Below are positions 34,616 to 64,000 of a stretch of 64,000 nt of DNA, in pieces. A program made the position numbers and the translations under genes. A model generated the notes under the pieces. It searched no databases, was not told the origin of the DNA, and saw nothing but the letters and a program-made list of their open reading frames with translations. The stretch is from NCBI GenBank assembly GCA_000002445.1, contig CP000066.1, positions 832,001 to 896,000 on the forward strand, written 5' to 3'. Within the stretch, counting starts at the first letter, position 1, and every line of letters begins with the position of its first letter. This DNA comes from Trypanosoma brucei. Lineage: Eukaryota.

Positions 34616-36391
34616 TCACTCCATGCCGAAGGCGAACACCTCAAACGTGAAAATCGGACGTTCGCAGAAGGAGCGAATGATCTCTTCCGTCAAGTTAGGC
34701 ACTTCAAACAGCTTCACAAAATTCCAACGAGGAGTTTGTGTATCGGTGCTGGCCCGCGTAGCAAAGTACCTTTCCTCATTATCAAACAACATGCTGAACC
34801 TGCAAAATACATGGGCACAGCAAGATTCCGGAATGCCAACGGCACCTACAACATTGAGACAAAAGCGAAGACTCTCCCCCACAAGTATCATGGGGTCCTC
34901 ACGCGCGTAGGCATGCGGATCACAAGGGAATAGCTGGATGTGGAGCTTCGCCTCAGTCAAAAATCCATAGTCATTTAAAAGACCCAGGGTGAATGAGCGT
35001 CGACCTCCTAACATAATACTCTTGGCCGAGATACTAGACTTTCCCTTGAAGTACTGTGTTGCGAGCCTGCCGTCAAGTGAAGCTATACAACCTTTGGTAG
35101 CCGCTTCCACCCTCCGTCGTAGGGCAATGTTACCAAGACGGATACTGTTCACTGCTCTAACTAGGTTCATATTCGTGTTCGACTGGGTATCAGAAGATGC
35201 TAGCGAGCGCCTAAGAGAATCACGTTCCCATATCAATTTGGAGAGCTCCTCCTGCTTTTTCAACCTCTCAGATCCCAATGATCCTAGCTTCTCCTCAAGA
35301 TGCACTGCACACTCCCTCAGTCGCTTCAATTCGTCACTCCCTGTCGCCTCATTAACTCTAACTTTGTTGGTAATTGCCGACGCGTTCTGTGCATACTCAA
35401 GTGTGGATATTGTCTCGGTTAAGTTCGAGGCGGAAGGGGACACTGTCGCAAGCATCCACGTTTTGCTGTTACCACCAAAGCTCTCTGAGAGAAGCCGAGT
35501 CAGTTTCGACGCGCGCAACGAGATGAAACCGTCACTCCCCTTCCGATCACTAAAGGAGTTCAGCGCCCGCCCGAGCATCAGAAGAGATTGGTTTATCTTC
35601 TTCGCTTCCTCAAAGGCAAGACCAGTGGATTCTGCTTTGCTCTGCCGCTCGCTTCCCGCCAAGTCCACCAGCATCGCAACACTTTCCACATCCTTCGTCT
35701 CAAGTGATTCGTGCTGCTGGGAAATAGTAAGCTGAATAATGGCATGCGATCGGGAGCTGGTTTCGTTCATTTTTGTCTCTCCCTTTTGCCGGTTAGCATT
35801 GCCGATGCTGAGTAACTCCATCAGACGATCCAAACTCAGCACAGGGTGTATACCAGCACCCTTCACATAAACACGTCGCTGATTGTCCTCATGAATTTCT
35901 AGCGCCTCCGGCTCCTGTCCTCGCACACGCGGGGCGAGCAGATCGCGCACCTTCTCCATATACACTTCTACCATTGTCAAGGAAAATCTGATCGTTGCGC
36001 GATTGTCCGCTTCCATACGGCGCTGGCCCTCCTCAATCATTGCCTGAGCAAAGCGCGGTGCAATTCCACACCTCGTCTTATCGTTCAGATCACCAAAAAG
36101 ACTATATGTTTTCCCTGTCCCCGTCTGCCCATATGCAAATAAACAAACATTGAAGCCTTCAAACGCCTCCTTCAGCATCGGTCTCCCAACAAAATCATAG
36201 ACCTCCTCCTGAGAGCCAGTGAACACTCGGTCGAATTTGAGGGCAGAGCCACCTTTAGTGCCCTCACCGTCTATCACAACGACATGATTGTCATCCGGGT
36301 CGCCGTGTACCACTGACCTCTCACCCTGACGCGTAGGGAAAATACGGACTCCCACCTGAACTCGGGTCCCCGTTCCCACAGAGTCATGCAT
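34616..36391 (-). CDS. kinesin (N-terminal motor domain), tail variant A
   Basis: P-loop GQTGTGKTY, switch I SSRSHAI and switch II LVDLAGSER. The motor is about 98% identical to the neighbouring gene, and the tail is unique. Confidence 0.9.
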   Translation of the reverse strand: MHDSVGTGTRVQVGVRIFPTRQGERSVVHGDPDDNHVVVIDGEGTKGGSALKFDRVFTGSQEEVYDFVGRPMLKEAFEGFNVCLFAYGQTGTGKTYSLFGDLNDKTRCGIAPRFAQAMIEEGQRRMEADNRATIRFSLTMVEVYMEKVRDLLAPRVRGQEPEALEIHEDNQRRVYVKGAGIHPVLSLDRLMELLSIGNANRQKGETKMNETSSRSHAIIQLTISQQHESLETKDVESVAMLVDLAGSERQSKAESTGLAFEEAKKINQSLLMLGRALNSFSDRKGSDGFISLRASKLTRLLSESFGGNSKTWMLATVSPSASNLTETISTLEYAQNASAITNKVRVNEATGSDELKRLRECAVHLEEKLGSLGSERLKKQEELSKLIWERDSLRRSLASSDTQSNTNMNLVRAVNSIRLGNIALRRRVEAATKGCIASLDGRLATQYFKGKSSISAKSIMLGGRRSFTLGLLNDYGFLTEAKLHIQLFPCDPHAYAREDPMILVGESLRFCLNVVGAVGIPESCCAHVFCRFSMLFDNEERYFATRASTDTQTPRWNFVKLFEVPNLTEEIIRSFCERPIFTFEVFAFGME

Positions 36392-38467
36392 TTCTAATAT
36401 CTAATATAAAGAACAACCTACCCTCAAGAGGCGAAGGGAAAAAATACATAATTGGGGGCCCAAATTCATACCCACTCCATCATGACGTTTTCCCACGTGT
36501 GGCCATGTGTCCTAAGTCCAGTTAAGTGCAAATAGAGGCAAGAGATATATGCATAGCTGGTTCACCACGTCAATCACATGAAACAAACCTACTGATAGCG
36601 AACCAACTGTACAAACACACAGCAAGGGATCATTTTTGGAAATATCGTCGTTTCCACCTGGTACCATTAAACACATTCAGATAGGATAAACCCGTCAACA
36701 CGAAAGTTTAGCACCTCCGCTCGCAGGAACCTTTCAATGTCCTTTGTATGTGGCCCTAATATATATGTCTGCTTGAGGGAAAACAAGGGGTTGCCGCCAT
36801 TAGACCCTACTATGGGCGTTCTTACGGAACTCGAGGAATGTCCCTCAAACCACATGGTCACCTGGGCCCCTCCCGTCACATAGTCAGGTAAGTGAAGGAT
36901 TTCACGAATACGAACAACAACGGCAACACAATTCTCGTCTGCGAGGTGGATATGTACGTGACAAATCAGAAGAGGAGGTGGCCCCGACAGGTTGTAACAT
37001 TGGACAACCATTGTTTCTACCTCAGAACCCCCTAACGGTATACTTCCCAGGGAAGTTTTACAGGTCCCATAAAAGCATGAAAGCGGTGGCTGAGCATGAA
37101 CGCTTGAAGAAGCATCTTGCCCTAAGGCGCTTTTAAGATGCAACAGCAGCTTCTCGCGCTCCTCAAGGGCCTCTCTCAACTCCACTTCAACGTCAAAATC
37201 ACATCTGCAAGATAACATGTTCTGGAGAAACTGAATTTCGTCACGAGCAGAAATTATGTCAACATCCAAATCCGAAACAACTTTCGCTTCACAGCCAAGT
37301 TGTTCCTTTAGTGTTGCAACACGAGACTGTATCGCTTCAAAATTTAGCCTCCTTTCCGCTCTGTTGACTCTAACTTTGTTGGTAATTGCCGACGCGTTCT
37401 GTGCATACTCAAGTGTGGATATTGTCTCGGTTAAGTTCGAGGCGGAAGGGGACACTGTCGCAAGCATCCACGTTTTGCTGTTACCACCAAAGCTCTCTGA
37501 GAGAAGCCGAGTCAGTTTCGACGCGCGCAACGAGATGAAACCCCCATTCCCCTTCCGGTCACTAAAGGAGTTCAGCGCCCGCCCGAGCATCAGAAGAGAT
37601 TGGTTTATCTTCTTCGCTTCCTCAAAGGCAAGACCAGTGGATTCTGCTTTGCTCTGCCGCTCGCTTCCCGCCAAGTCCACCAGCATCGCAACACTTTCCA
37701 CATCCTTCGTCTCAAGTGATTCGTGCTGCTGGGAAATAGTAAGCTGAATAATGGCATGCGATCGGGAGCTGGTTTCGTTCATTTTTGTCTCTCCCTTTTG
37801 CCGGTTAGCATTGCCGATGCTGAGTAACTCCATCAGACGATCCAAACTCAGCACAGGGTGTATACCAGCACCCTTCACATAAACACGTCGCTGATTGTCC
37901 TCATGAATTTCTAGCGCCTCCGGCTCCTGTCCTCGCACACGCGGGGCGAGCAGATCGCGCACCTTCTCCATATACACTTCTACCATTGTCAAGGAAAATC
38001 TGATCGTTGCGCGATTGTCCGCTTCCATACGGCGCTGGCCCTCCTCAATCATTGCCTGAGCAAAGCGCGGTGCAATTCCACACCTCGTCTTATCGTTCAG
38101 ATCACCAAAAAGACTATATGTTTTCCCTGTCCCCGTCTGCCCATATGCAAATAAACAAACATTGAAGCCTTCAAACGCCTCCTTCAGCATCGGTCTCCCA
38201 ACAAAATCATAGACCTCCTCCTGAGAGCCAGTGAACACTCGGTCGAATTTGAGGGCAGAGCCACCTTTAGTGCCCTCACCGTCTATCACAACGACATGAT
38301 TGTCATCCGGGTCGCCGTGTACCACTGACCTCTCACCCTGACGCGTAGGGAAAATACGGACTCCCACCTGAACTCGGGTCCCCGTTCCCACAGAGTCATG
38401 CATTTCTAATATCTAATATAAAGAACAACCTACCCTCAAGAGGCGAAGGGGGAAAATACATAATCGT
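35356..38467. repeat. tandem segmental duplication (2012-bp period) covering the kinesin 5' flank plus motor-domain coding region
   Basis: 35356-36455 is nearly identical to 37368-38467, including a 50-bp identical 5' flank (atttctaatatctaatataaagaacaacctaccctcaagaggcgaaggg). The 3' halves of the genes are unrelated. Confidence 0.85.
36667..38403 (-). CDS. kinesin (N-terminal motor domain), tail variant B
   Basis: The same motor domain as the gene at 34616..36391 (two substitutions across about 340 aa) with a completely different C-terminal 230 aa. Confidence 0.9.
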   Translation of the reverse strand: MHDSVGTGTRVQVGVRIFPTRQGERSVVHGDPDDNHVVVIDGEGTKGGSALKFDRVFTGSQEEVYDFVGRPMLKEAFEGFNVCLFAYGQTGTGKTYSLFGDLNDKTRCGIAPRFAQAMIEEGQRRMEADNRATIRFSLTMVEVYMEKVRDLLAPRVRGQEPEALEIHEDNQRRVYVKGAGIHPVLSLDRLMELLSIGNANRQKGETKMNETSSRSHAIIQLTISQQHESLETKDVESVAMLVDLAGSERQSKAESTGLAFEEAKKINQSLLMLGRALNSFSDRKGNGGFISLRASKLTRLLSESFGGNSKTWMLATVSPSASNLTETISTLEYAQNASAITNKVRVNRAERRLNFEAIQSRVATLKEQLGCEAKVVSDLDVDIISARDEIQFLQNMLSCRCDFDVEVELREALEEREKLLLHLKSALGQDASSSVHAQPPLSCFYGTCKTSLGSIPLGGSEVETMVVQCYNLSGPPPLLICHVHIHLADENCVAVVVRIREILHLPDYVTGGAQVTMWFEGHSSSSVRTPIVGSNGGNPLFSLKQTYILGPHTKDIERFLRAEVLNFRVDGFILSECV

Positions 38468-40525: not shown

Positions 40526-41005
40526 ATCGTGTGAGACTTACTAATATATATATATATATAAATATACCACGGGAAAGGAATGGTAATGAAAAATGCTCGA
40601 TACACACTGTATCAGCAACTGCAGTAAGTCATCACAAAAAGGCGTTTCATATCCTTTTATTTAACCTTTGACAGAAACCGGGATGGAACCGGTTACCTAG
40701 TTTCGTACGGTGAATTCCAACTCAGATTGAGGAACCGTAAAAGAAAATGAAGGAACTTCACGACGACCAAAAAAGTCGTTTGTTACATGAGTAAGCGGAA
40801 TGATATCAACACCACTTCCCTTATATTTTTCAAAAATGATAATAATAACAATAATAATAATAACTGGAAATTTTCTTGTGGGCTCAAGATAACGAGCTCC
40901 ATTACCACCGCCTAAACCATTAACATCAATGTGGAGAGAAGTAAATAGGCATGTTCCGCTGCTCTCCACCATCTTACTGTCAGGACTTTTTTTTACGCAG
41001 CGAGT

Positions 41006-41248
41006 TCACTCGGATCGATCCAACAACAAGTCCGTAAGAAAAAAAAAATAACTAACATTGGCAATACCCCAGTAGCACCACATAAACTCCTCGATAGGAG
41101 AATAAAAATGGGGACAAAACACAGAATCACGATACATATTCATAGATATATATTCAATACCTGTAGCAACCGAGCAATAAAATTGTGCTCGTACTGGGCG
41201 GTTCACAGGCTGCTTGTAGTGTCTAATCAAATTGTCGGTCGTAGCCAT
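41006..41248 (-). CDS. small hypothetical ORF (80 aa) at the head of the gene cluster
   Basis: It runs in the same orientation as the cluster, from MATTDNLIRHYKQ... to a stop codon. No domain was recognised, and it could be spurious. Confidence 0.2.
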   Translation of the reverse strand: MATTDNLIRHYKQPVNRPVRAQFYCSVATGIEYISMNMYRDSVFCPHFYSPIEEFMWCYWGIANVSYFFFLTDLLLDRSE

Positions 41249-43658
41249 ATCCCTCACAAAGGAAGAAAGGATGACCGCATAAACTCGGCGGTTGCCCCAG
41301 TCAGCACACCAACTGACTATTATTAAAAACTCCAGCCCTCCCTCCTTTCCACTTCGACACAAGCATCAAAACACCCGCAATCACTAATATGTGTAATCAC
41401 CTCGATGGAAGAAAACATATAAGAAAGGGTGACGAACTCTCATACTGACCTGAGTGTTCTGTAATAATCGTACAGCAGACCTTTACTGCGAGCGCAAAAT
41501 CAACTGAAAATGGTAACCCACACTACTCAACCGACCTTAATATATGATGGCAACGACGCTACGCACGTTATCACGAACATGAATAGACGCAGCGCGACGT
41601 TACAAGGAGGCACGCCATTCTAACTTGATTTTTTTTTTTGCGTGAATTAGTACTCCTTAAAAAGGAAAACATCTCTATCAACAAGCAATAATCCATATCC
41701 CTCCTCCCTCCCTCTGCACTAAGATTACAAAAACGACCGGACGACGTGACAATTGGTATTCAAGTAAACAAGTCATCCATACTGAACAAAACCCGGCCAG
41801 TTACTCAAAAACAGTCCCCCTCCATTAAAAAAAAAATGTTGGTAGTGTCAGCATCACACAATCACTCCCACTGCAATTCCCTTAAATCCAACAAGTCAGT
41901 TGATAGCCGATTAAAAAAAAGCTAAGATCGAATATATTATTTGATTAGCATACTACCTTGTTTAGTCACTTAGCATCTTTAAAAAAAAAATGAGAGCATG
42001 GCAACACTCGTACACCCTTGCCTCTGATTCAACCTGATACAATGTAACTGAAGGTGAATCGGAAGAAGTAACACACCCAACGGAACTTAAACACTCCCTA
42101 CTCGCAGCCCCAAGAATTGTAGGTGCAAGTCCAATGCCACAGTATCGAAAAAAAAGTCCAAACAGAAACAACCTTTTATTGTATATACCACACCTTTGCA
42201 ACATCGAGTGCAGGTGGACAATATCTCGCACACAAGTAGGTGGTTGAGATCGGCGAAAATAAGGTCATCCTCAGACGTAAAACTGCACCTGAAGGGCCTG
42301 TCAGCCCCACGCTACCCTTTCTACAAATTTTGCATGCTAAACAGTAAAAAAAAGAAAGAAAGAAATGGTTGGATTGCTGAACTCGGAGCTTCACGTTTTC
42401 CAGAAGTGCGCTCGTTCTTCAGAAGAGGGAAGAAGTCACCAAAATTCATAACAAAATCCATGACCGCGCTGGGAGCATCCAAAGGGGTGATGACAGCCCC
42501 TCATGCATCTATCCTGTAAAAGAACGATTGACCCCACGGTAAATGCGAGGACAAAACCGCGGGATCCCGACGTACTCCAGCCTGCGCGGTCAAGGTTAAA
42601 AAGGCTAAGTGAGGAACGAAATCACCAAGTTCTATTTTTAAAAAAAACGGGTGCTTTTAATCACTGAAAGCAAGCCAGAGAGCCCTTCCCTGTTCACCCC
42701 CTTGACAGGGCCACGTCACCCCGCAAACCCCACCGGCAGCCGACTGCGCACAAATACTCCGCAGTAAAAACGAAAAAATTATCAGAAGATATCAATCAAC
42801 CCAACAGTCCCAGAAAGCTCTTTCACACCCAAAAAAATCCCAAAGTCCCCACAGCGGTAGATAAATCGATACCGAAAAAAAAAAGGTCGCCCGCACCTCT
42901 ATTCCATACATTACCCAAGTAACGCAGGGAGAAAGAGCCAAATTCCACCTATTAACGCGGAATCATCTGCAGTGCCCTCATCACCCCTCGAACCAGCCGA
43001 CACCTTCTGTGCGCTAGAAGTGCTTGAAACTTCACACGGACCTCATGTGCACTAACGGAGCCTATCAACATCTCGAAGCGATACCCGTTTCGTCCTAAAC
43101 ACTTCCTCACAGACATGTCTCACTATAACAAAATATATACGCACCACTACGAACACCAGGTCTATGCCTGGTCGACCGTTACGCAACAAACAAAAAACTC
43201 TCCTCCTACCGATGTACCAAACAATAAGCACCCGCATGCATACCTCCTTTCTTTAATCAAAACGTTTAAAAAAAGTGTCCAGAGGAAAAGGGAAGAGAGA
43301 TGGAAAGAAGCCACGCTCAACCCACCTTATTAAAAAAGAAAAAAGCAAACCGACCTCCCCCCAGCCCGCCCACCCCATACACACCCCATTTTTTTTTGAA
43401 ATTTTCTTCGTGCCTTCGCGAGAGTTTCCCCCCACTGGCGCGGCCATCAGCCATCACCGTAGAGCTCTGAGATGCTATCGGTCTGGCGACTGTGGCAGAG
43501 TCTCCCTTTTTTATTCAGCCCAACACACTCTCTATAATTTTTGTTGTATTTCCGCGGCTGAACGGAATACAGCAGATGGGGCGAGAAGCCCCCCACCCTG
43601 GACTCTCCCAAAGATGTCAATTGGCAATCCTTTTGTTTTGATTTTTGTTATTCGTTTA

Positions 43659-44957
43659 TTATTCTCTCTCCCTCTTTCTGTTTCTGTTGCTTGTTGACTG
43701 CATACCTCCTCTGTCTCTGAGGGTGTCTGGACTATTCCTGCGTCCGGTGCTTTTCCTGCTAGCTCCACCCTCGGCAATAAGGGGGGAAGTTGCAGAAGGG
43801 AGAGTGGGTTGTATGACTGTTACATTAGGGGAGGACTTCACCCGCGGCCGGCTCCGTTCAACCGCAATGAGAAATTGCGCCAGCCTTTTGGAGAAACATA
43901 TATCCTGCACACACACCCCCTCTACCGCAAACCTGACACGTAACTCCTTCAAACCGGGACAGCTCATCAAGTGCAGCGACGTTTCTTCGCAGTCGCCGCG
44001 TTGGCTGGTAACAGCGCGCTCTACTTTCATACCGCGCATCTTCTTTTGATGTAGGGTGAGGCCAGTTTTGCTAGCACACTGCCTTCCGCATGTCGGGCAC
44101 ACCAACATGGATGTGTTTGTATGCGGGGAATCAGTGGCACACAATTTTGTGCTTTTGCTGCATTTAAGCTCGACTCCCTCACCTTTGTGGAAAGCCTTGC
44201 AGTGTCGGATGAGGGAGTCCCTGCAACTGAGCACTTTTTGGCACACACCACACTGCACCTCGCCTTTCCCCGGGACGTCAACGTTTCCCTCACGGGTACG
44301 CTTACGAGGGAATTGCACCACCACCACGGTACCGTCCTCCGTCACTATGCTCTTATGTTTGAATTTCTTGCGTAGTGACAGGGAAGAGCGTGTACCGAAG
44401 CTCGCCTCGCACAGGTCACATTGAAACGGCAGCTCCTGTGTATCCTGAGGGGCTGGCGCTGCTGGGACGCTACCATCTCCTTGCAATGAGTCCTCGTTCT
44501 CTCGCCCCCTTTTCACGCGGTAACTACCGCTGCCTATGCCATGTATTGTTCTAAGGTGGTGTAATAGTCGGCCTGGCACTGCGAATTTGGAGGCACAGAG
44601 GGTACAATGAAGCACCTGCGGTCTCATCGGGACTCGTGTGCTCGGTGGTAGAGGAACGATCGCCACCACTGGAGGGGGCTCCGGGGGGATATCCACTATA
44701 GGTGTTGCATCGCCGTATTTGATCCTCCGGAGGGCATCAGCTCGCACAAAGCCGTGTGTGTTTACCATGTGCGTTACAGCACTCGAGCGGCATTGGTATG
44801 TGGCATCACATACCGTACATTTGGTTGGTTCGGAGGTTCTCTGAACAGTGCGTGTCGCAACAGGTGGGGCTGTTTGTATTGTTGGTTCTATCGCTGTATG
44901 TTGCGGGTTACACCATCGGCACTGCGGGGGCACACTCGGGTTGATCTTCCGCAACAT
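43659..44957 (-). pseudogene. retroelement ORF fragment: C2H2 zinc-finger (nucleic-acid chaperone-like) C-terminal domain
   Basis: At least five Cx2Cx12Hx3-5H fingers (for example CTVCDATYQCRSSAVTHMVNTHG and CTLCASKFAVPGRLLHHLRTIHG), as in the C-terminus of L1Tc/ingi ORFs. Confidence 0.65.
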
Positions 44958-45107
44958 CCATCCATAGTGCCTTGAAGACCCAACCCGAAAGCGTGCCAGT
45001 GCCGTTTCTTCTTCCCTCGTCAGTTCTTCTTTATGTTTTGTTGGAAAGTGGTTGCCCGTGATACCAAACCTATGAGTGTTCTCATGGACTTCTTCCTACC
45101 TAAGCAC

Positions 45108-47639
45108 TCACTTCGCATAAGCAATGATGTCGGGGATCCATGTGTCTCGCAACTGTGGTAAATCTGCAGCCTTTTTGGCCATTTCATCGCAAACCTCATT
45201 CCGTTTCACGCCACAATGGCCAAACACAAATTGCAGTCGGATACGTATCTTCCTTCTCTGAACTTGAAGCAGAAGCCTCCATAGTCGTCTCAGAATTGGG
45301 TCCGTTACGGCTAGGGGGCCTGTCTGCAGTGCTGTTAACATTGACAGCGAGTCAGAGAAGATGGACAACCTGCTCGGTGTGCTTCTGTATGCCGGAAGCC
45401 ATTTCAGCAGCCGTTGCAGTCCTATCTCTAATGCTACGCATTCCGCTCTGTAACTGCATGAGAGTTCCCCTGCTCCGGTTTTGGGTGCGCAAATCAGCGT
45501 GTTGTTTCTATAGAGCAGGGCAGCTGCCTCGGACTTCTCACCGAGGGACACGGATCCATCAGTCCACAATTCGTAGTGCTCTCGCCGCGGTGGCTCCTTC
45601 CCCCTCCGTGCAAAATGCCGTTCAATCCACTTTTCGGAAGCCTCCCTTTTGACATCGTCAGGGTCATCAGCGCACACAGGCTTTATCTGCGTGTGAAATA
45701 GCGATCGGCAGCTGTGGCGGAGCGTCGATGTCTCTAGTGGGTGCTCGCGTGGCTCAATGCGGAGGTGGGGGTAGGACCGCATGATGCGGGAATGTAGGGC
45801 TCTGACTGGGTGTTTGCTGTGGTATACTTCCTCAGCACTGCGGCGCAAACATCCGCCTCGTGACTCACACATCAGCATGAATTTCATGCCGCGCACAAGA
45901 GTGGTCGTCTTGAGTGGCAGGAGGTTTGCTTCCAGCAGAGAGTCCTCTTTGCGCGTCCCATGCGGTATGCCAGCTATGATGCGACTGGCTTTGTGTTGTG
46001 CTGCTGCAAGGAGGTCGCGACTTCGTTCCGAAGCGTCCCAGTACCATACCTCAATGCCATACATGGTGTGTGCCTGTACGAGTGCTAGATAAAAAGCTCT
46101 CAGTAGTTGTCGTCTTGGCCCCCATGTAGAAGCTGAGATGGCTGCTATCTGCAGTAGTCGGAAGTCCATCTTGCGTCTCGTTTCGGCCGCATGTGTTGCC
46201 ATCCCTTGCAGACACTGGAATGTTACTCCTAGAAGCTTCGGTGTCCTGTCAGCTCCTATTCTTTCGCCGTCCAGTTGTAATGTAAGGGGGTGGCGCTCTA
46301 TACACCCGAAGAGTGTGCACTTTGTTTTCGCTACGTTGACAGACATGAAGTACTCTTTTGACCACTGTAACACTACGTTGAGGCCGCATTGCAGTGTGTG
46401 GTTGATGACATCCCTCTCTCTGTATCTCGCAAGTAGCGTCAGGTCGTCTGCAAAGAATCCGTTCTGCAGTAACGGCAGTCCTGCAAGGCGCTGGCTCAAC
46501 GAGTTCATGACAATAATGAACATGATTGGGCCAAGGACAGTTCCTTGTGGCACTCCTCGTTCAAATGTTCTGCTGCTGGAAAGCTTCTCCTTGAATCTCA
46601 CTCTGCCAGTTCGGTTACTCAGAAATGATACGCACCACTTCACAATGTGGGGTGATACCTTCATTATGTGCATTTCCCTCGCAATTTTGTCGTGGTCTGC
46701 TGTATCGAATGCCTTCTCGTAGTCAACGAATACAGCACCCGTACGAGATTGGTGCGTGGGGCGGCAGAGGGCAGCGCGGACGTGCAGGAGTTGTTCGAGC
46801 GTTGAGCATCCGGGGCGAAAGCCTGATTGCTGCGGCGTCAGCTGGGACTCAACAGTGTCTCTAAGCCTCGCGGCAATTATGCGCTCCATGACTTTGCAGA
46901 GACAGCTCGTGAGCGTCACAGGCCTGTAAGAATCGAGGTCCTCCGCCTTTTTTCCGGCCTTCAGGATGGGGATGATAACACCAGTCTTCCATGCAGGCGG
47001 CACGACTCCCGTTCGTAGGCTCTCATTGAATAGCCTCAGAACAACATTCAGCGCTGTTCTGCCGAGATGTTGCAGTGCCTCGTTGTATAAGCAATCAGGT
47101 CCGGCAGCGGATCCACTCGGTAGCAGTTTGATCGATCTCCGTAGTTCAGCCATCGTGATGGGACTGAACTCACTCGCTGTCGTCTTTATGGGTGCCGGTG
47201 GGTGTGAGTCGGGGTGTCTTCTTGCGCGGGACGAGTACAGTTTAATGAACCTCTCAGCTTGACGGTAGTCCGTGATGGCCGCGTTATCAACCAGCGCCGC
47301 CGGTGTGGTTAGTGGTCGTGGCGCATATACCTTCTTGACAATGTGCCAACTGCAGCGGTCTGACACCGCAAGTCTGGAGCATAGCGTGCTCCATCTCTTC
47401 TTTGTGGTACGGTCCAGGATCTGCTTACGCGTGGCTACCAACTTTTCCCTTCGGTGGGAGGGTCCACATCCAGCGATCTCTTCATCGACTTTCGCGAGCT
47501 CAGGTGTCCAATGTGGTGGCGTTGCTCTGCAGCCACGGGGGACGGAGACCTTCGTCGCAATGCGGATGGCGGAGCTCAATTTAATGTTCCAGGGTGTTGA
47601 CGTTCTTCTCTCTACCAATTTTCCTGCAGAGCTCGTCAA
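45108..47639 (-). pseudogene. retroelement ORF fragment: reverse transcriptase plus RNase H
   Basis: RT blocks (PDCLYNEAL, FVDYEKAFDTADH, GVPQGTVLGP, FADDLTLL) are followed by an RNase H-like LWTDGS...ECVALEIGLQ. It ends in TGA (45108-45110), in the same frame as the downstream zinc-finger ORF. Confidence 0.8.
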
Positions 47640-47904
47640 CCTTGAGACGGAAATTCCTCCAGTTAGCTTTTAGCCATGCGTACATGGGCTTTCGAAGCCG
47701 CGGTCGGCTCAGTGCATCTGTGCCGTCTCCAACGATAACGTCGAAAAATATGTGATGGTGATCGCTATTGGGAGAATACAGCGATGCCCACGTGTACACT
47801 GTACAATTCCTTGACAGTTTCACATCAGGGGTGGACTCCCCGTGGTGGCGCGTGTACCTGGTGCACTCACCAGTGTTGCAGACCAGAAACTGGTTGTCAA
47901 TGCA

Positions 47905-48657
47905 TCACTGTGTGAGGGTTTCACCCTTGGTATTTGGTGGGCTCGCGCGATCCCATGCCAACGTGTGTGCGTTAGCGTCTGCACCGATGAGCTGGGAACC
48001 GTCAGTCGTCAGAACCGTATATAGGTCAGTTGCCGTGAAGGTGTGTTTTGGTGGGATGTATGCCGACGTGACGGTCAGCGCCGTTTCACGTGCAAGGTGA
48101 ATTGTTGCATGCACTTGTTCAATGCGACCAACAACGGCCATACCGGTCTCGACTGGTAGGTCCTCCCTCACTAGTGTTGATACACCACCTCCTTTGCAGT
48201 TACGAGCTATTCCGTGATGTTTGTAGCCAGCAACGCTAAAGCAAGCCGCCTCTCCAGGCGTCATCCTTGTCTCGCTCAACAGACAAAAGGCGATCCGCTC
48301 ATCAACAAGGGTTTTGTGGAGTGCTAATCTCTTTCCTTGAGATAGCCCGGCGCAGTTCCACTTCATCCCGCGCAACGACGGGCCGGGATTCTCTTCCACA
48401 TCACCGGACAGCAGCATCTTAGTGCGGATGATACTGCTGATGGCACGCTGGCACGTGCCCAGGGACCGACAAATGAAAAACGGTGTCCCAGCAAGACGCT
48501 GCTGATCACTGTGCTGTATGATGCCGTAGCCGGAGCACAGCATTGTTCCCCATGAAAGGAACGCTGCTAGCTCTTGGCTTCCCCCGATGATACGGGGCAC
48601 TGGACCCTGGCACCACGTTGAGGTGGCCGGCGTCGCCCCTGAGCAGACTCTTGACAA
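47905..48657 (-). pseudogene. retroelement ORF fragment: 2A-like peptide plus apurinic/apyrimidinic endonuclease domain
   Basis: SSIIRTKMLLSGDVEENPGP is followed by the exonuclease-III/APE fold (LLSETRM..., ...GGGVSTLVRED...). It lies in frame 0 and ends at a stop, and the next domain is in frame 2, so a frameshift separates them. Confidence 0.7.
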
Positions 48658-51600
48658 TCACAAACTCGCTGTTGCCGCTCATGGTATTGGAAGCAGGCCC
48701 ATCCCACCGTGGCAGACCAACACCCAAATAAGCTACGGGTGCTTCTCCTACAAATACGGGAGGGAAAGCGTATACCACATTGAAGTTTGTATTTAGTTAC
48801 TGATGTGGAATGGAATGGGATGTTTGATGGTATGGTGGAAAGGGTGACTGACATGCCGCAGTTGCCTGACCCGAAGCTCCAGGACATTGTAACCTACATG
48901 GGACCGATATTGCTGTCAGCGGAAAAGGGAGTGAAGAAGAGGTGGCAGTGGCTCGTTCCCACCCCGTTGCCTCTCGGCATTGCGAATGTATGCTGCGAAA
49001 TATCAACACGCGGACACCGCTGCAGTGCCTGAAATGAAAAGTACAAAGCTCGGCTTACAAAGCGTCGAACTCCGACAACCCATGCGACCACTGCGACAGC
49101 GAAAAACAGTATGACCCACACTGGTGATGAAATGAGGTGGCGTGAGCACAAAGCCCATGGCTAGTGCCAGTCGAGTGCTGTAACGCATATGGTAAACAAA
49201 CACGAATATGTCCGCGCGGATGCGCCGTGAATATCGAGGTGCGGCGACACACCGTGCCTTTCATGTATTTTCCGGGATCCTCTTCCAACTGAGAATTCAC
49301 AGCTAGGAGTGCAGTGTGCGCCGGAATGGGTTTAAGCAAGGAGACTGCTCGGGGAGACGCCGCAGAGCGCATCACGGTGTGTGTGTGTGTTTGGGGGAGG
49401 AGGAGGAGCTTGAGCTCAAGAGGTGGACGCACAAATGAACGACAGACACCAAGCAAATGCACATTAACACCAATGTTTCCAACATGTGTGTCACAGCGCC
49501 GCAATCAAACCTGACCTTGTACTTTATAGAAAGACACGCGTGGCTTCCACGCGACACCTGAAATCACAACCCAATGCAACGATTTCGATTGAAAGTTACC
49601 ATTATTATTGAGCTGCCAATGGGTGAAAGATTTTCATGGACAGTGTGTTGTGGAAGAGTGATCATACGGGTCTAAAGGACTTTGGAGATAATTTGCATAG
49701 TTTCTCCTCGCGGTGGAACGGTACCACCAGGCGCCGCACCCATTTTCCACTTGTATCTTCTCTTCTTGACACCATAGAAGGATCTGACAACACAAACAGC
49801 GCACGCAGCGATCATAAGCAAAGAGCTACCCCCACATACGGGAAAGAAGAGGAGAAAGAGGGATAAAGGGAATCGATAACATCAAAAAAAATTTATGTCA
49901 GAAAGTTTAGCGACTTCGCATCTTTAAAATGAGCACACTGTGGGGAAGTGTGCTGTTCCGTCTCCTGTATACTGCGCTATGACGACTCTGAAGGAGTAAA
50001 AGAAAACATCGGAATGGAGGGAGGCATACATTATACATAACGAAGAGACTCAACCACATTCATCAACAACAAAAGCAATTCCAATATACACTAGTCAACA
50101 ACCACCTCAGCGGTGAAGTTAACTCCAACGCGAGGACAGGAAAATATCCCCTAAAAAGAGTCCTGCACGACTTGGTTCGTGATGGATTGGGAAAGGCTCA
50201 CATTGTACCTTACTTTATGGTAGACAAGACCGTATGCCTTTCCCAAGCCTAACGGTGACGAACGAGAGGACATTGTCTGATACCATAACGAAAGCTAACG
50301 GGCAGAAGGTGTCACTTACGTATTTGGTAGCGCGTACCATTTAGTCACATTTGGCATCATAAGCAGCTATAGCGCATTACTCTTCTTCAGGCAACCGAAG
50401 TTATGGTATCATTGTGTCATCGTCACTGAGCAGGAAATGTTTTCACAGATGGTATAAGGAAAAGAGTATGTGCTTCTTCTACATAAATTTCTACGAGAAG
50501 ATAGAGTTTAAGGCTGCGCTTGCATCGATGTATTTCTCAACGTTTCAAAGGAAAGAAGCAGTTGTGAGATGTTGTGGAGCAAGTGAAAGAGATTGAGATA
50601 AATATGGATGATATTGGATGATCGGATTCATATGGTGGGGCCTTTACTGCCTTTGTTGAATGGAACTTCCTACAAGCAATGCTGTGATGTGGAGGAACCA
50701 CGATATGAACTTACTGATTTAGTTGTAACAATTGTATGACGGTTCATGAAAGCATCAGAGTATCTGGAAAACGAGTGATGGGAATGTAAGACATGAGACA
50801 CACAGCAAAAAATGCAATTCTAATCCAAGTGAGTGGTGAGGTGATGCACAGACATGTTCGTTGTGTTACATTGCTCTGGAGAAGAGACTGAAAGCTTCGG
50901 TGTATGGAGTCCATATCATTGGGAGGAATCAACCGTACAAGACATTTTATCACGTACTTCAGTGAGATGTTACACAAGGTATTAGAGAATGTTACTGTGA
51001 ATAGTAGCCTTAATGGCTGACTTCACCGCAAACGACGTGGGTGGAGCTTACGAAATAAAACGCCTTCAGCGTGGTAAGGAGCTATCTTGACACAAATATG
51101 TGTTATTACAAGGAAAGATATCGCCATATGCGTATTATTTTCCTTATGTTGATGTTTTGTGCGTGGCATACAATCAAAAATGTAACGAAGGTTGGATACC
51201 CTTACACAACCCATCAAAGACAATTTTCCATCTTGCTGATACGTTTTGTTTGTGTGTGGGGGGGGGGGGGAATTACAGTCAAATGTAATGTCGATCCACA
51301 ATTGTTTTGATTCATGCAGTAACAGAATATATCGACATTGTGTTTCACCTGACTCAGTCATTATGTCTATAAGGGGAATAAAGGAGGCACTTGATCCTAG
51401 GGGGACTTTTGAAAGACAATCTGGAATGGGGAAATCATCTTTATGCGTCATGTGTACTGCACAGGAAGTGTTTGAGATTAAGCGTAAACTTCATTCAAAT
51501 GAAGAGAACACGAATCCGAAATGTGTGGGTATTATGAAAGCACGATCACCCCCCACACCCACTGAAGATGGGCAAATCGATGAGAAACTGTGGGGTAATG

Positions 51601-52280: not shown

Positions 52281-55200
52281 TATCGCACAAAACCCTGTTA
52301 CAGTGTGATTGGGTAACGCCCTTCCACTGATCACATGCATTGGTGGCACATCATGGCCCATCTTTCATGGTTATCGCCCCTACGGCGCATAATGGCGTGT
52401 TATCGCACAAAACCCTGTTACAGTGTGATTGGGTAACGCCCTTCCACTGATCACATGCATTGGTGGCACATCATGGCCCATCTTTCATGGTTATCGCCCC
52501 TACGGCGCATAATGGTGTGTTATCGCACAAAACCCTGTTACAATGCGATTGGGTAACGCCCTTCCACTGATCACATGCATTGGTGGCACATCATGGCCCA
52601 TGTTTCATGGTTATCGCCCCTACGGCGCATAATGGTGTGTTATCGCACAAAACCCTGTTACAATGCGATTGGGTAACGCCCTTCCACTGATCACATGCAT
52701 TGGTGGCACATCATGGCCCATATTTCATGGTTATCGCCCCTACGGCGCATAATGGCGTGTTATCGCACAAAACCCTGTTACAGTGTGATTGGGTAACGCC
52801 CTTCCACTGATCACATGCATTGGTGGCACATCATGGCCCATCTTTCATGGTTATCGCCCCTACGGCGCATAATGGCGTGTTATCGCACAAAACCCTGTTA
52901 CAGTGTGATTGGGTAACGCCCTTCCACTGATCACATGCATTGGTGGCACATCATGGCCCATCTTTCATGGTTATCGCCCCTACGGCGCATAATGGCGTGT
53001 TATCGCACAAAACCCTGTTACAGTGTGATTGGGTAACGCCCTTCCACTGATTACATGCATTGGTGGCACATCATGGCCCATCTTTCATGGTTATCGCCCC
53101 TACGGCGCATAATGGCGTGTTATCGCACAAAACCCTGTTACAGTGTGATTGGGTAACGCCCTTCCACTGATTACATGCATTGGTGGCACATCATGGCCCA
53201 TGTTTCATGGTTATCGCCCCTACGGCGCATAATGGCGTGTTATCGCACAAAACCCTGTTACAGTGTGATTGGGTAACGCCCTTCCACTGATCACATGCAT
53301 TGGTGGCACATCATGGCCCATCTTTCATGGTTATCGCCCCTACGGCGCATAATGGCGTGTTATCGCACAAAACCCTGTTACAATGCGATTGGGTAACGCC
53401 CTTCCACTGATCACATGCATTGGTGGCACATCATGGCCCATCTTTCATGGTTATCGCCCCTACGGCGCATAATGGCGTGTTATCGCACAAAACCCTGTTA
53501 CAGTGTGATTGGGTAACGCCCTTCCACTGATTACATGCATTGGTGGCACATCATGGCCCATGTTTCATGGTTATCGCCCCTACGGCGCATAATGGCGTGT
53601 TATCGCACAAAACCCTGTTACAGTGTGATTGGGTAACGCCCTTCCACTGATCACATGCATTGGTGGCACATCATGGCCCATCTTTCATGGTTATCGCCCC
53701 TACGGCGCATAATGGTGAGTTATCGCACAAAACCCTGTTACAGTGTGATTGGGTAACGCCCTTCCACTGATCACATGCATTGGTGGCACATCATGGCCCA
53801 TCTTTCATGGTTATCGCCCCTACGGCGCATAATGGTGAGTTATCGCACAAAACCCTGTTACAGTGTGATTGGGTAACGCCCTTCCACTGATCACATGCAT
53901 TGGTGGCACATCATGGCCCATCTTTCATGGTTATCGCCCCTACGGCGCATAATGGCGTGTTATCGCACAAAACCCTGTTACAGTGTGATTGGGTAACGCC
54001 CTTCCACTGATTACATGCATTGGTGGCACATCATGGCCCATGTTTCATGGTTATCGCCCCTACGGCGCATAATGGCGTGTTATCGCACAAAACCCTGTTA
54101 CAGTGTGATTGGGTAACGCCCTTCCACTGATCACATGCATTGGTGGCACATCATGGCCCATCTTTCATGGTTATCGCCCCTACGGCGCATAATGGTGTGT
54201 TATCGCACAAAACCCTGTTACAATGCGATTGGGTAACGCCCTTCCACTGATCACATGCATTGGTGGCACATCATGGCCCATCTTTCATGGTTATCGCCCC
54301 TACGGCGCATAATGGCGTGTTATCGCACAAAACCCTGTTACAGTGTGATTGGGTAACGCCCTTCCACTGATCACATGCATTGGTGGCACATCATGGCCCA
54401 TCTTTCATGGTTATCGCCCCTACGGCGCATAATGGTGTGTTATCGCACAAAACCCTGTTACAATGCGATTGGGTAACGCCCTTCCACTGATCACATGCAT
54501 TGGTGGCACATCATGGCCCATCTTTCATGGTTATCGCCCCTACGGCGCATAATGGTGTGTTATCGCACAAAACCCTGTTACAGTGTGATTGGGTAACGCC
54601 CTTCCACTGATCACATGCATTGGTGGCACATCATGGCCCATCTTTCATGGTTATCGCCCCTACGGCGCATAATGGCGTGTTATCGCACAAAACCCTGTTA
54701 CAGTGTGATTGGGTAACGCCCTTCCACTGATCACATGCATTGGTGGCACATCATGGCCCATCTTTCATGGTTATCGCCCCTACGGCGCATAATGGTGTGT
54801 TATCGCACAAAACCCTGTTACAATGCGATTGGGTAACGCCCTTCCACTGATCACATGCATTGGTGGCACATCATGGCCCATGTTTCATGGTTATCGCCCC
54901 TACGGCGCATAATGGTGTGTTATCGCACAAAACCCTGTTACAATGCGATTGGGTAACGCCCTTCCACTGATCACATGCATTGGTGGCACATCATGGCCCA
55001 TATTTCATGGTTATCGCCCCTACGGCGCATAATGGCGTGTTATCGCACAAAACCCTGTTACAATGCGATTGGGTAACGCCCTTCCACTGATCACATGCAT
55101 TGGTGGCACATCATGGCCCATCTTTCATGGTTATCGCCCCTACGGCGCATAATGGCGTGTTATCGCACAAAACCCTGTTACAGTGTGATTGGGTAACGCC

Positions 55201-58200
55201 CTTCCACTGATCACATGCATTGGTGGCACATCATGGCCCATCTTTCATGGTTATCGCCCCTACGGCGCATAATGGTGTGTTATCGCACAAAACCCTGTTA
55301 CAGTGTGATTGGGTAACGCCCTTCCACTGATCACATGCATTGGTGGCACATCATGGCCCATCTTTCATGGTTATCGCCCCTACGGCGCATAATGGCGTGT
55401 TATCGCACAAAACCCTGTTACAGTGTGATTGGGTAACGCCCTTCCACTGATCACATGCATTGGTGGCACATCATGGCCCATCTTTCATGGTTATCGCCCC
55501 TACGGCGCATAATGGTGTGTTATCGCACAAAACCCTGTTACAATGCGATTGGGTAACGCCCTTCCACTGATCACATGCATTGGTGGCACATCATGGCCCA
55601 TGTTTCATGGTTATCGCCCCTACGGCGCATAATGGTGTGTTATCGCACAAAACCCTGTTACAATGCGATTGGGTAACGCCCTTCCACTGATCACATGCAT
55701 TGGTGGCACATCATGGCCCATATTTCATGGTTATCGCCCCTACGGCGCATAATGGCGTGTTATCGCACAAAACCCTGTTACAGTGTGATTGGGTAACGCC
55801 CTTCCACTGATCACATGCATTGGTGGCACATCATGGCCCATCTTTCATGGTTATCGCCCCTACGGCGCATAATGGTGAGTTATCGCACAAAACCCTGTTA
55901 CAGTGTGATTGGGTAACGCCCTTCCACTGATCACATGCATTGGTGGCACATCATGGCCCATCTTTCATGGTTATCGCCCCTACGGCGCATAATGGTGAGT
56001 TATCGCACAAAACCCTGTTACAGTGTGATTGGGTAACGCCCTTCCACTGATCACATGCATTGGTGGCACATCATGGCCCATCTTTCATGGTTATCGCCCC
56101 TACGGCGCATAATGGTGAGTTATCGCACAAAACCCTGTTACAGTGTGATTGGGTAACGCCCTTCCACTGATCACATGCATTGGTGGCACATCATGGCCCA
56201 TCTTTCATGGTTATCGCCCCTACGGCGCATAATGGTGAGTTATCGCACAAAACCCTGTTACAGTGTGATTGGGTAACGCCCTTCCACTGATTACATGCAT
56301 TGGTGGCACATCATGGCCCATCTTTCATGGTTATCGCCCCTACGGCGCATAATGGCGTGTTATCGCACAAAACCCTGTTACAGTGTGATTGGGTAACGCC
56401 CTTCCACTGATTACATGCATTGGTGGCACATCATGGCCCATGTTTCATGGTTATCGCCCCTACGGCGCATAATGGCGTGTTATCGCACAAAACCCTGTTA
56501 CAGTGTGATTGGGTAACGCCCTTCCACTGATCACATGCATTGGTGGCACATCATGGCCCATCTTTCATGGTTATCGCCCCTACGGCGCATAATGGTGAGT
56601 TATCGCACAAAACCCTGTTACAGTGTGATTGGGTAACGCCCTTCCACTGATCACATGCATTGGTGGCACATCATGGCCCATCTTTCATGGTTATCGCCCC
56701 TACGGCGCATAATGGTGTGTTATCGCACAAAACCCTGTTACAATGCGATTGGGTAACGCCCTTCCACTGATCACATGCATTGGTGGCACATCATGGCCCA
56801 TCTTTCATGGTTATCGCCCCTACGGCGCATAATGGCGTGTTATCGCACAAAACCCTGTTACAGTGTGATTGGGTAACGCCCTTCCACTGATCACATGCAT
56901 TGGTGGCACATCATGGCCCATCTTTCATGGTTATCGCCCCTACGGCGCATAATGGCGTGTTATCGCACAAAACCCTGTTACAGTGTGATTGGGTAACGCC
57001 CTTCCACTGATCACATGCATTGGTGGCACATCATGGCCCATCTTTCATGGTTATCGCCCCTACGGCGCATAATGGCGTGTTATCGCACAAAACCCTGTTA
57101 CAATGCGATTGGGTAACGCCCTTCCACTGATCACATGCATTGGTGGCACATCATGGCCCATCTTTCATGGTTATCGCCCCTACGGCGCATAATGGCGTGT
57201 TATCGCACAAAACCCTGTTACAGTGTGATTGGGTAACGCCCTTCCACTGATCACATGCATTGGTGGCACATCATGGCCCATCTTTCATGGTTATCGCCCC
57301 TACGGCGCATAATGGTGTGTTATCGCACAAAACCCTGTTACAATGCGATTGGGTAACGCCCTTCCACTGATCACATGCATTGGTGGCACATCATGGCCCA
57401 TATTTCATGGTTATCGCCCCTACGGCGCATAATGGCGTGTTATCGCACAAAACCCTGTTACAGTGTGATTGGGTAACGCCCTTCCACTGATCACATGCAT
57501 TGGTGGCACATCATGGCCCATCTTTCATGGTTATCGCCCCTACGGCGCATAATGGTGAGTTATCGCACAAAACCCTGTTACAGTGTGATTGGGTAACGCC
57601 CTTCCACTGATCACATGCATTGGTGGCACATCATGGCCCATCTTTCATGGTTATCGCCCCTACGGCGCATAATGGTGAGTTATCGCACAAAACCCTGTTA
57701 CAGTGTGATTGGGTAACGCCCTTCCACTGATTACATGCATTGGTGGCACATCATGGCCCATCTTTCATGGTTATCGCCCCTACGGCGCATAATGGCGTGT
57801 TATCGCACAAAACCCTGTTACAGTGTGATTGGGTAACGCCCTTCCACTGATTACATGCATTGGTGGCACATCATGGCCCATGTTTCATGGTTATCGCCCC
57901 TACGGCGCATAATGGCGTGTTATCGCACAAAACCCTGTTACAGTGTGATTGGGTAACGCCCTTCCACTGATCACATGCATTGGTGGCACATCATGGCCCA
58001 TCTTTCATGGTTATCGCCCCTACGGCGCATAATGGTGTGTTATCGCACAAAACCCTGTTACAATGCGATTGGGTAACGCCCTTCCACTGATCACATGCAT
58101 TGGTGGCACATCATGGCCCATCTTTCATGGTTATCGCCCCTACGGCGCATAATGGCGTGTTATCGCACAAAACCCTGTTACAGTGTGATTGGGTAACGCC

Positions 58201-59990
58201 CTTCCACTGATCACATGCATTGGTGGCACATCATGGCCCATCTTTCATGGTTATCGCCCCTACGGCGCATAATGGTGTGTTATCGCACAAAACCCTGTTA
58301 CAATGCGATTGGGTAACGCCCTTCCACTGATCACATGCATTGGTGGCACATCATGGCCCATCTTTCATGGTTATCGCCCCTACGGCGCATAATGGCGTGT
58401 TATCGCACAAAACCCTGTTACAGTGTGATTGGGTAACGCCCTTCCACTGATCACATGCATTGGTGGCACATCATGGCCCATCTTTCATGGTTATCGCCCC
58501 TACGGCGCATAATGGTGTGTTATCGCACAAAACCCTGTTACAATGCGATTGGGTAACGCCCTTCCACTGATCACATGCATTGGTGGCACATCATGGCCCA
58601 TGTTTCATGGTTATCGCCCCTACGGCGCATAATGGTGTGTTATCGCACAAAACCCTGTTACAATGCGATTGGGTAACGCCCTTCCACTGATCACATGCAT
58701 TGGTGGCACATCATGGCCCATATTTCATGGTTATCGCCCCTACGGCGCATAATGGCGTGTTATCGCACAAAACCCTGTTACAGTGTGATTGGGTAACGCC
58801 CTTCCACTGATCACATGCATTGGTGGCACATCATGGCCCATCTTTCATGGTTATCGCCCCTACGGCGCATAATGGTGAGTTATCGCACAAAACCCTGTTA
58901 CAGTGTGATTGGGTAACGCCCTTCCACTGATCACATGCATTGGTGGCACATCATGGCCCATCTTTCATGGTTATCGCCCCTACGGCGCATAATGGTGAGT
59001 TATCGCACAAAACCCTGTTACAGTGTGATTGGGTAACGCCCTTCCACTGATCACATGCATTGGTGGCACATCATGGCCCATCTTTCATGGTTATCGCCCC
59101 TACGGCGCATAATGGTGAGTTATCGCACAAAACCCTGTTACAGTGTGATTGGGTAACGCCCTTCCACTGATTACATGCATTGGTGGCACATCATGGCCCA
59201 TCTTTCATGGTTATCGCCCCTACGGCGCATAATGGCGTGTTATCGCACAAAACCCTGTTACAGTGTGATTGGGTAACGCCCTTCCACTGATTACATGCAT
59301 TGGTGGCACATCATGGCCCATGTTTCATGGTTATCGCCCCTACGGCGCATAATGGCGTGTTATCGCACAAAACCCTGTTACAGTGTGATTGGGTAACGCC
59401 CTTCCACTGATCACATGCATTGGTGGCACATCATGGCCCATCTTTCATGGTTATCGCCCCTACGGCGCATAATGGTGAGTTATCGCACAAAACCCTGTTA
59501 CAGTGTGATTGGGTAACGCCCTTCCACTGATCACATGCATTGGTGGCACATCATGGCCCATCTTTCATGGTTATCGCCCCTACGGCGCATAATGGTGAGT
59601 TATCGCACAAAACCCTGTTACAGTGTGATTGGGTAACGCCCTTCCACTGGTTACATGCATTGGTGGCACATCATGGCCCATCTTTCATGGTTATCGCCCC
59701 TACGGCGCATAATGGCGTGTTATCGCACAAAACCCTGTTACAGTGTGATTGGGTAACGCCCTTCCACTGATTACATGCATTGGTGGCACATCATGGCCCA
59801 TGTTTCATGGTTATCGCCCCTACGGCGCATAATGGCGTGTTATCGCACAAAACCCTGTTACAGTGTGATTGGGTAACGCCCTTCCACTGATCACATGCAT
59901 TGGTGGCACATCATGGCCCATGTTTCATGGTTATCGCCCCTACGGCGCATAATGGTGTGTTATCGCACAAAACCCTGTTACAATGCGATT
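52281..59990. repeat. 120-bp tandem satellite array (about 64 copies, about 51% GC); candidate centromere-associated repeat
   Basis: The unit tacggcgcataatggcgtgttatcgcacaaaaccctgttacagtgtgattgggtaacgcccttccactgatcacatgcattggtggcacatcatggcccatctttcatggttatcgcccc repeats with an exact 120-bp period. Four polymorphic sites define variant units arranged in recurring blocks. Confidence 0.95.
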
Positions 59991-62900: not shown

Positions 62901-64000
62901 GGGCCCTCGTGCATTCACAGTTTATTTACAGTCGCTGAGGTGTGGCCGTGGCTGGGCTTTCAGGCGTGGAGGCCCAAGCCACCGCCAACTTTCAAGTGTG
63001 TGTGTGTGTATGGGGACGGGGGGGGGGGGGGTGGCATAAATACCCGAAGTCACTGGACTTGCCAAACGGGCCGTCAGAGTATTCAGGATAAAGGCACGTA
63101 GACAAATCAGAAACCACTATGAATTCACCCCGTAAGATGCATCGCCCAGCCCAGGACAGGCTAGTGAACTCGCGCCATGTTGGACGGGGAAACAGGCTTC
63201 ATGTGGGCGGGTCTTTTGAACCGGTGGGCTAGCACAAGAGGAAGAAAGGTGGCGACGAGCTCCTAGCAGGGGCCGGTAAGATTCAAAATAGCGACCCACC
63301 CCTAACCGTGTACGAATGCGATTGGATTCCTGCATAACCTTGCTGCATGATGGGGTTTCAACCCAGGGAAGTGGTGCGAGGCACACGCGTCGCGTGCGAA
63401 ATCTCTCTTTCGGCGAGACGTCGTATTAACTGAAATAGGACACGGAACTCGGGGTTGCGCCAGAACTCGCGGCTGATGCTTTGTCTTGCCCGCCAAAGCT
63501 GCATGTATGCTTTGTATGCCGCGCATCCTTTTTTTGTTTATCGCGCTCGGTGGGTCACATGCCATCAACTTGCTGCTACCGAAGTCAGAGCGAACCATAT
63601 TCACTTCCTGGAGGATTACTGTATGTTATGTCCGAACTAGTTATGCGTGACCAGTTGCAAACGTTCAGCTTTTAGTCCTCGGTCTTCCTTAATTGCGAAA
63701 ACAGTTTACTTGAGAGTGAAAGGCTTCTGCCTCTTTTTTTTTTTTTTTTGAGCCAAACGTAGAAGAGCATAGTGGAGTTTACAATTTTCATTCAGAGGAG
63801 TGGGCAGCTTTTTGTGTAGTCTATTCTCCTTTATAGGGGTGTTCCTCTCGAATGAAGAAAGTACATGTTGGAAGAGAATGAGGGGTTTCTTAATTTCTTG
63901 GAGGAATTGTGCAAGGTTCTTGGTGAACACTGTCTTCTGCATATTTTCGCCCTCAAGCCCGAAGTGACTGCGGAGCACTTTAGGCTTGAGCGCACGAGTA

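Follow-up and report, generated by a model that had tools for sequence, protein, structure and literature searches.

Does the broken, ingi-like sequence near a satellite array of Trypanosoma brucei represent a young retrotransposon that was disabled by a few mutations, or is it a long-decayed relic of the DIRE type? The question is raised by a stretch of 64,000 nucleotides of T. brucei DNA (contig CP000066.1, positions 832,001 to 896,000 of the forward strand). This stretch is called the window below, and all positions are counted from its first letter. A preliminary description made from the letters had placed a degenerate non-LTR (non-long terminal repeat) retrotransposon of the ingi/L1Tc clade on its minus strand. 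Our analysis leaves very little doubt that the element at window positions 43389-48641 (minus strand) is a full-length but disabled copy of Tbingi, located beside the centromeric repeat of chromosome 3. Tbingi is the 5.25-kb autonomous non-LTR retrotransposon of T. brucei (Kimmel 1987; Bringaud et al. 2004, both as cited in PMC3820030 and PMC2323293).

Identity and boundaries of the ingi copy

Ingi copies for comparison were obtained from loci in T. b. equiperdum and T. b. gambiense assemblies. In blastn searches the window copy is 96.5% identical at the DNA level to an intact ingi (locus L002) over 5,251 bp (window 48637-43389) and 95.5% identical to another copy (L001) over 5,256 bp (window 48637-43388). 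From a six-copy consensus it diverges by 2.5%, the other copies diverging by 1.2-4.7%. The assignment to the ingi/L1Tc clade, as made in the preliminary description, is therefore upheld by nucleotide similarity to an intact ingi. Neither the window nor the loci used for comparison contained a RIME copy. In a protein homology search, the open reading frame (ORF) carrying the reverse transcriptase (RT) matches a T. brucei equiperdum “reverse transcriptase” at 95% identity. Its next-best named relatives are found in T. congolense (42%) and T. vivax (40%), and no named match outside T. brucei exceeds 44% amino-acid identity. The 90% cluster of the T. b. equiperdum protein also includes an intact ingi polyprotein of 1,656 amino acids (P0129), to which the repaired translation of the window copy is identical at 1564 of 1656 residues (94%).

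Homology to four other full-length ingi copies begins at 48637. Since the canonical first base of the element aligns with 48641, the full length comes to 5,253 bp. The length of about 5.5 kb assumed earlier, with an end near 48,900, proved too long by some 260 bp. Published values for ingi are a length of 5.25 kb and a GC content of 52.3% (PMC2323293); the GC content of the window copy is 53.6%. The parts of the element and its differences from the intact copy are listed here.

43389-48641, minus strand: full-length Tbingi retroposon, pseudogene copy (blastn)
48563-48641, minus strand: damaged 5' signature of 79 nt, the Pr77 hallmark (aligned with the four other full-length copies)
48633-48631, minus strand: start codon ATG changed to ACG (comparison with intact L002)
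48379-48402, minus strand: 2A-like self-cleaving peptide motif DVEENPGP (direct translation; identical in P0129)
47749-48360, minus strand: AP (apurinic/apyrimidinic) endonuclease domain, cut by a TGA at 47907-47905 (Pfam Exo_endo_phos_2)
47907-47905, minus strand: W243, TGG changed to TGA (comparison with intact L002)
47584, minus strand: insertion of one T, frameshift (+1) after codon 350 (alignment to L002 and L001)
46218-46946, minus strand: RT domain with the FADD box present (Pfam RVT_1, E 1.9e-41)
45833, minus strand: in-frame 3-nt insertion relative to intact L002, a polymorphism common to another copy
45165-45578, minus strand: RNase H domain (Pfam RNase_H, E 4e-9, 37.2 bits)
45110-45108, minus strand: R1174, CGA changed to TGA (comparison with intact L002)
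45098-45096, minus strand: S1178, TCG changed to TAG (comparison with intact L002)
44040-44819, minus strand: C2H2 zinc-finger region (Pfam zf-C2H2_4 and zf-C2H2)
about 43595, minus strand: 2-nt deletion in the 3' untranslated region (UTR) relative to intact L002
43398-43658, minus strand: 3' UTR of 261 nt (aligns with the 3' ends of other ingi copies)
43389-43397, minus strand: A9 tail (read from the sequence)

Three large minus-strand ORFs of 250, 843 and 432 amino acids are located between about 48.66 and 43.66 kb. Stop-to-stop frame analysis identified them as a single reading frame that is split by an in-frame stop, a change of frame and two close stops, and that ends in a TAA stop codon at 43661-43659. 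Much of this layout had been anticipated correctly: the partition into three ORFs, the minus-strand order of 2A peptide, AP endonuclease, RT, RNase H and C2H2 fingers (seen here by translation and Pfam), and a 3' UTR of about 260 nt followed by nine A residues. The endonuclease scores 39.2 bits with Exo_endo_phos_2 on the repaired translation (cutoff 27.4), whereas its matches on the broken ORF stay below threshold. The single ORF that characterizes Tbingi (about 1,657 amino acids) can be recognized in the window by its domain order and 94% identity, but it is broken by five lesions.

These lesions were mapped codon by codon against the intact ORF of L002. They comprise the lost start codon, the three nonsense codons and the additional T, and tblastn places the switch of frame between 47584 and 47582. 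The damage of the window copy thus consists of five discrete lesions and not of general decay; two of the six other ingi copies are more broken, with two stops and four frameshifts each. Two of the zinc fingers furthermore carry an arginine in place of a zinc-ligand histidine (SLSLRKKFKH instead of SLSLHKKFKH, and HQKKMRG instead of HQKKMHG; window compared with P0129). The preliminary description had left the choice between a dead copy and a DIRE-like relic. The former is right and the latter wrong for this element, given a divergence of only 2.5% from the consensus and fewer ORF-breaking lesions than in two other copies.

The 5' signature agrees with the other copies at about 73 of its 79 positions. 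AGG replaces CCT at positions 2-4, and ACG replaces ATG at positions 9-11; all four other full-length copies start with CCCTGGCGATGC / CCCTGGCGATGCC, the window copy with CAGGGGCGACGC / CAGGGGCGACGCC. In the ribozyme of L1Tc, residues C1-C3 pair within helix P1 (triple G-C pairing; PMC3185411). Because the altered bases 2-4 fall at these P1-pairing residues, the 5' promoter/ribozyme of the window copy is probably impaired, if the homology to L1Tc is a valid guide.

In sum, the window copy resembles Tbingi in its 5,253 bp, its 79-nt 5' signature, its 2A motif, a DNA identity of 96%, a GC content of about 53%, the succession of endonuclease, RT, RNase H and C2H2 domains in one frame after repair, and a 3' UTR of about 260 nt with poly(A). 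It differs from Tbingi as a pseudogene, which has lost its ATG and carries three stops and one frameshift, in the altered first bases of the 5' signature and in the absence of a 12-bp target-site duplication. L1Tc of T. cruzi likewise shares the domain architecture, the 2A motif and the Pr77/HDV-like (hepatitis delta virus-like) ribozyme hallmark at the 5' end (PMC1874656, PMC3185411, PMC4035085). It belongs, however, to another species and family, and no named T. cruzi protein occurs among the named RT matches. Membership in L1Tc was rejected, as the best match is from T. brucei (95%), named matches from elsewhere reach 44% at most, and the length is 5.25 kb and not the 4.9 kb of L1Tc.

The adjoining DIRE-like relic

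Only 15 nt separate the 5' end of the ingi from the start of a second, much more decayed sequence on the opposite strand.

48657-49974, plus strand: DIRE-like relic, degenerate, internally deleted and without its 5' part (nhmmer, blastn and tblastn)

With a profile of ingi copies, nhmmer detects three colinear matches in the relic to ingi positions of about 3280-5080 (E 1.5e-17 to 3.9e-7). Its identity to ingi is 62-77% in blastn, and tblastn finds colinear matches at 48933-49028 and 49165-49260 with 53-64% identity. The GC content of the relic is 49.5%; the published value for TbDIRE is 48.7% (PMC2323293). Judged by its sequence, the relic is DIRE-like and separate from the ingi, and it holds the 48642-48900 stretch that the preliminary description had counted with the ingi. 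Like the DIREs, it is degenerate and only remotely similar to ingi. The window ingi itself shares with TbDIREs the clade and the kind of location (centromeric or strand-switch domains); DIREs, unlike the window ingi, cannot be aligned to ingi at high identity and contain many stops and frameshifts.

The relic was not simply split by the ingi, because its missing 5' part was not found beyond the other side of the ingi. Neither the 3' flank (40526-43388) nor the gene cluster yielded ingi-related sequence in searches by blastn, tblastn, protein profile and nhmmer. On the far side of the satellite array, a weak RT fragment is present at 61509-61718 (plus strand, profile E 3e-5), along with weaker ingi-like tblastn matches at 60782-61327 and 63886-63981 (both minus strand). 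These fragments are probably further DIRE remnants.

A 25-nt direct repeat with 88% identity was also noted at 41960-41984 and 49905-49929, each copy being followed by a run of A and TGAG. As the footprint of a larger insertion this repeat was discarded; the match is marginal, with E 0.012, and shows no extension.

The orthologous copy and alternative histories

Chromosome 3 of T. b. gambiense DAL972 (locus L009) is colinear with window positions 50509-40420 at 97.4% identity, and the ingi is present there as well; both junctions agree, and so does the 5' end with CAGGGGCGACG. It follows that the insertion already existed, with its unusual 5' end and no duplication, when brucei and gambiense split. 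The lost ATG and the altered 5' signature are common to the window and its ortholog, in which the poly(A) tail is A12 as compared with A9 in the window. A G-rich sequence of 16 nt at 43361-43376 (GGGGTGGGCGGGCTGG, minus strand), located 12 nt past the A9 tail, is deleted in T. b. gambiense. In T. equiperdum OVI, contig CZPT02000349 (L004) is 99.9% identical to the 3' flank of the ingi. Position 1 of this contig corresponds to window 43397, which means that the contig breaks off precisely where the A9 tail lies. This end is an assembly break at a repeat, and at least the tail junction is common to T. equiperdum OVI.

Divergence between the window and T. b. gambiense is unevenly distributed. The unique 3' flank differs by 0.4-0.5% and the DNA past 50.0 kb by about 1%, whereas the ingi differs by about 2.8% and the relic by about 2.9%. 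When the consensus is used to polarise the changes, 80 are specific to the window, 65 to gambiense, and 50 are shared. Of the lineage-specific coding changes, 37-42% are synonymous, whereas about 24% would be expected for neutral decay in place. The lineage-specific substitution spectra show no deamination-like or other hypermutation signature, and a mosaic test (sliding-window identity against four full-length and two partial copies) revealed no clear recombination breakpoints. The divergence and the synonymous excess fit either sequence exchange with other ingi copies or mis-assembly of repeats.

Three points weigh against the reading of the element as a full-length but disabled Tbingi. The 12-bp target-site duplication, which is normal for elements of the ingi clade (PMC3820030) and which the preliminary description had proposed as a check, is absent: the best 12-mer shared between the 40-nt flanks has five mismatches. 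This is no better than in shuffled flanks, where four mismatches were the commonest best value (500 shuffles), and the duplication is missing whether the 5' end is set at 48641 or at 48637. Around the intact L002 copy, the duplication TTCTCCT(T)CACA was detected in this way. A target-site duplication is, however, a mark of a clean insertion event and not of sequence membership. Also, the TGA at 47907-47905, the additional T, the second TGA and the TAG are all missing in the T. b. gambiense ortholog, which is called as an ORF of 1,585 amino acids starting at M73. Either these four lesions are recent in the window lineage, or they reflect an effect of assembly or gene conversion in one of the two genomes. 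Finally, the family assignment is based on T. b. equiperdum and T. b. gambiense copies and on source annotations, not on curated consensus sequences of ingi, RIME and DIRE.

Which other histories could account for the locus? The centromeric setting, which is typical for DIREs, and the broken ORF would both suit a DIRE, that is, a long-extinct and heavily degenerated relative of ingi and L1Tc. Such an identity could by no means be reconciled with 96% DNA identity over the full length to ingi copies, one of them intact, and on this nucleotide identity it was ruled out, leaving it a negligible probability. One frameshift and three stops are fewer ORF-breaking lesions than are found in two other ingi copies, the GC content of 53.6% is ingi-like and not TbDIRE-like, and the truly DIRE-like sequence is the adjacent one at 48657-49974, with its 62-77% identity and its internal deletions. 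In the opposite scenario the copy is intact or nearly so and potentially active, the four ORF-breaking lesions being assembly errors. The ortholog of T. b. gambiense DAL972, intact at all four sites, argues for this scenario, but its “clean” ORF would equally follow from the collapse of a repeat in the gambiense assembly. It would require four independent errors, of which three are substitutions, in 2.8 kb of finished chromosome, and this is hardly to be expected; moreover, both assemblies lack the ATG and have the first four bases altered, and the two histidine-to-arginine changes at zinc ligands are extra damage. We consider this scenario very improbable.

A history other than simple insertion is less improbable than these two, although it remains the less likely course: deletion of the target site or insertion into a break, or else later reshuffling of the flanks and interior by ectopic recombination or gene conversion with other ingi copies. 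Any of these would be compatible with a disabled full-length Tbingi. The absent duplication and the aberrant 5' terminus point in this direction, as does the position of the ingi 5' end 15 nt from a relic whose 5' part is lacking and is not found beyond the ingi. The same holds for the divergence from gambiense (about 2.8% in the ingi against 0.5% in the 3' flank) and for the share of synonymous changes (37-42% against about 24%). On the other hand, identity to each of the four copies is fairly even along the element, without clear mosaic breakpoints, and only 19 of the 80 window-derived states occur in the six sampled other copies. The relic, which is not ingi, is also diverged by about 3%, and conversion from ingi to ingi does not explain this. 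Mis-assembly of repeats could mimic all of the supporting points.

For the disabled full-length Tbingi favoured here, established behaviour of the ingi clade suggests that a polyadenylated ingi RNA was copied into the site by target-primed reverse transcription, at a time when T. b. brucei and T. b. gambiense had not yet separated. In its current state the copy cannot make its own polyprotein: the canonical start reads ACG, one nonsense codon falls inside the endonuclease, a +1 frameshift parts the endonuclease from the RT, and two nonsense codons part the RNase H from the zinc fingers. It is a passive pseudogene, which could at most feed the RNA interference pathway by read-through transcription or serve as a recombination or gene-conversion partner for other ingi copies.

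Centromeric setting and possible sequence exchange among ingi copies

The satellite near the ingi was delimited with Tandem Repeats Finder.

52281-59990, no strand assigned: 120-bp satellite, 64.2 copies, 98% identity, GC 50.2%

Obado et al. (2007) described the centromere of chromosome 3 as an array of a 120-bp unit with 49% AT between Tb927.3.3410 and Tb927.3.3430, and reported at least one ingi or DIRE in each centromeric domain of T. brucei (PMC1868937). Next to the ingi is a gene for an aspartyl aminopeptidase, whose product is identical to that of T. b. brucei TREU927. Because both the 120-bp satellite and the flanking gene agree, the window is the chromosome 3 centromere flank of that study. 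It shares with the published domain the 120-bp unit, an AT content of about 49-50%, an adjoining ingi/DIRE and a directional gene cluster on one side; it differs in the size of the array, 7.7 kb within the window as opposed to an estimated length of up to 30 kb (PMC1868937). The centromeric placement given in the preliminary description is confirmed by this agreement with the published array. That the element flanks the satellite is true in the sense of proximity only, as its 5' end lies 3.6 kb from the array and the two do not abut. According to Obado et al. (2007, PMC1868937), the chromosome 3 repeats have rRNA arrays in their vicinity. A scan of the whole window with Rfam at the gathering threshold detected no rRNA, no catalogued ribozyme and no other family.

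Two tandem kinesin genes are located at 34616-36391 and 36667-38403 (both minus strand). Their first 347 or so residues are nearly identical (95% over 370 amino acids) and their C-terminal parts are unrelated. Exact-protein look-ups with a kinesin ORF of the window and with the C2H2 ORF returned no match.

An ingi pseudogene or DIRE beside T. brucei centromeric repeats represents a well-known type of element and setting, described since 2007, and beyond correct annotation our results carry little significance in this respect. The practical gain is that the true boundaries of the element are fixed and its exact disabling lesions listed, that a young ingi is told apart from the old relic adjoining it, and that the window is placed at the chromosome 3 centromere flank. 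One point beyond annotation is the excess divergence between brucei and gambiense, which is confined to retroelement DNA and bears on whether ingi copies exchange sequence. The two differ about six times as much in the retroelement DNA as in the neighbouring unique DNA, synonymous changes are in excess, and the ORF is open (1,585 amino acids) in one ortholog but broken four times in the other. Barring an assembly artefact, ingi copies under selection might even overwrite the copies next to centromeres continually, through gene conversion. We regard this as a speculative and rather doubtful proposal. If it were true, “dead” ingi copies could be repaired or killed without any retrotransposition.

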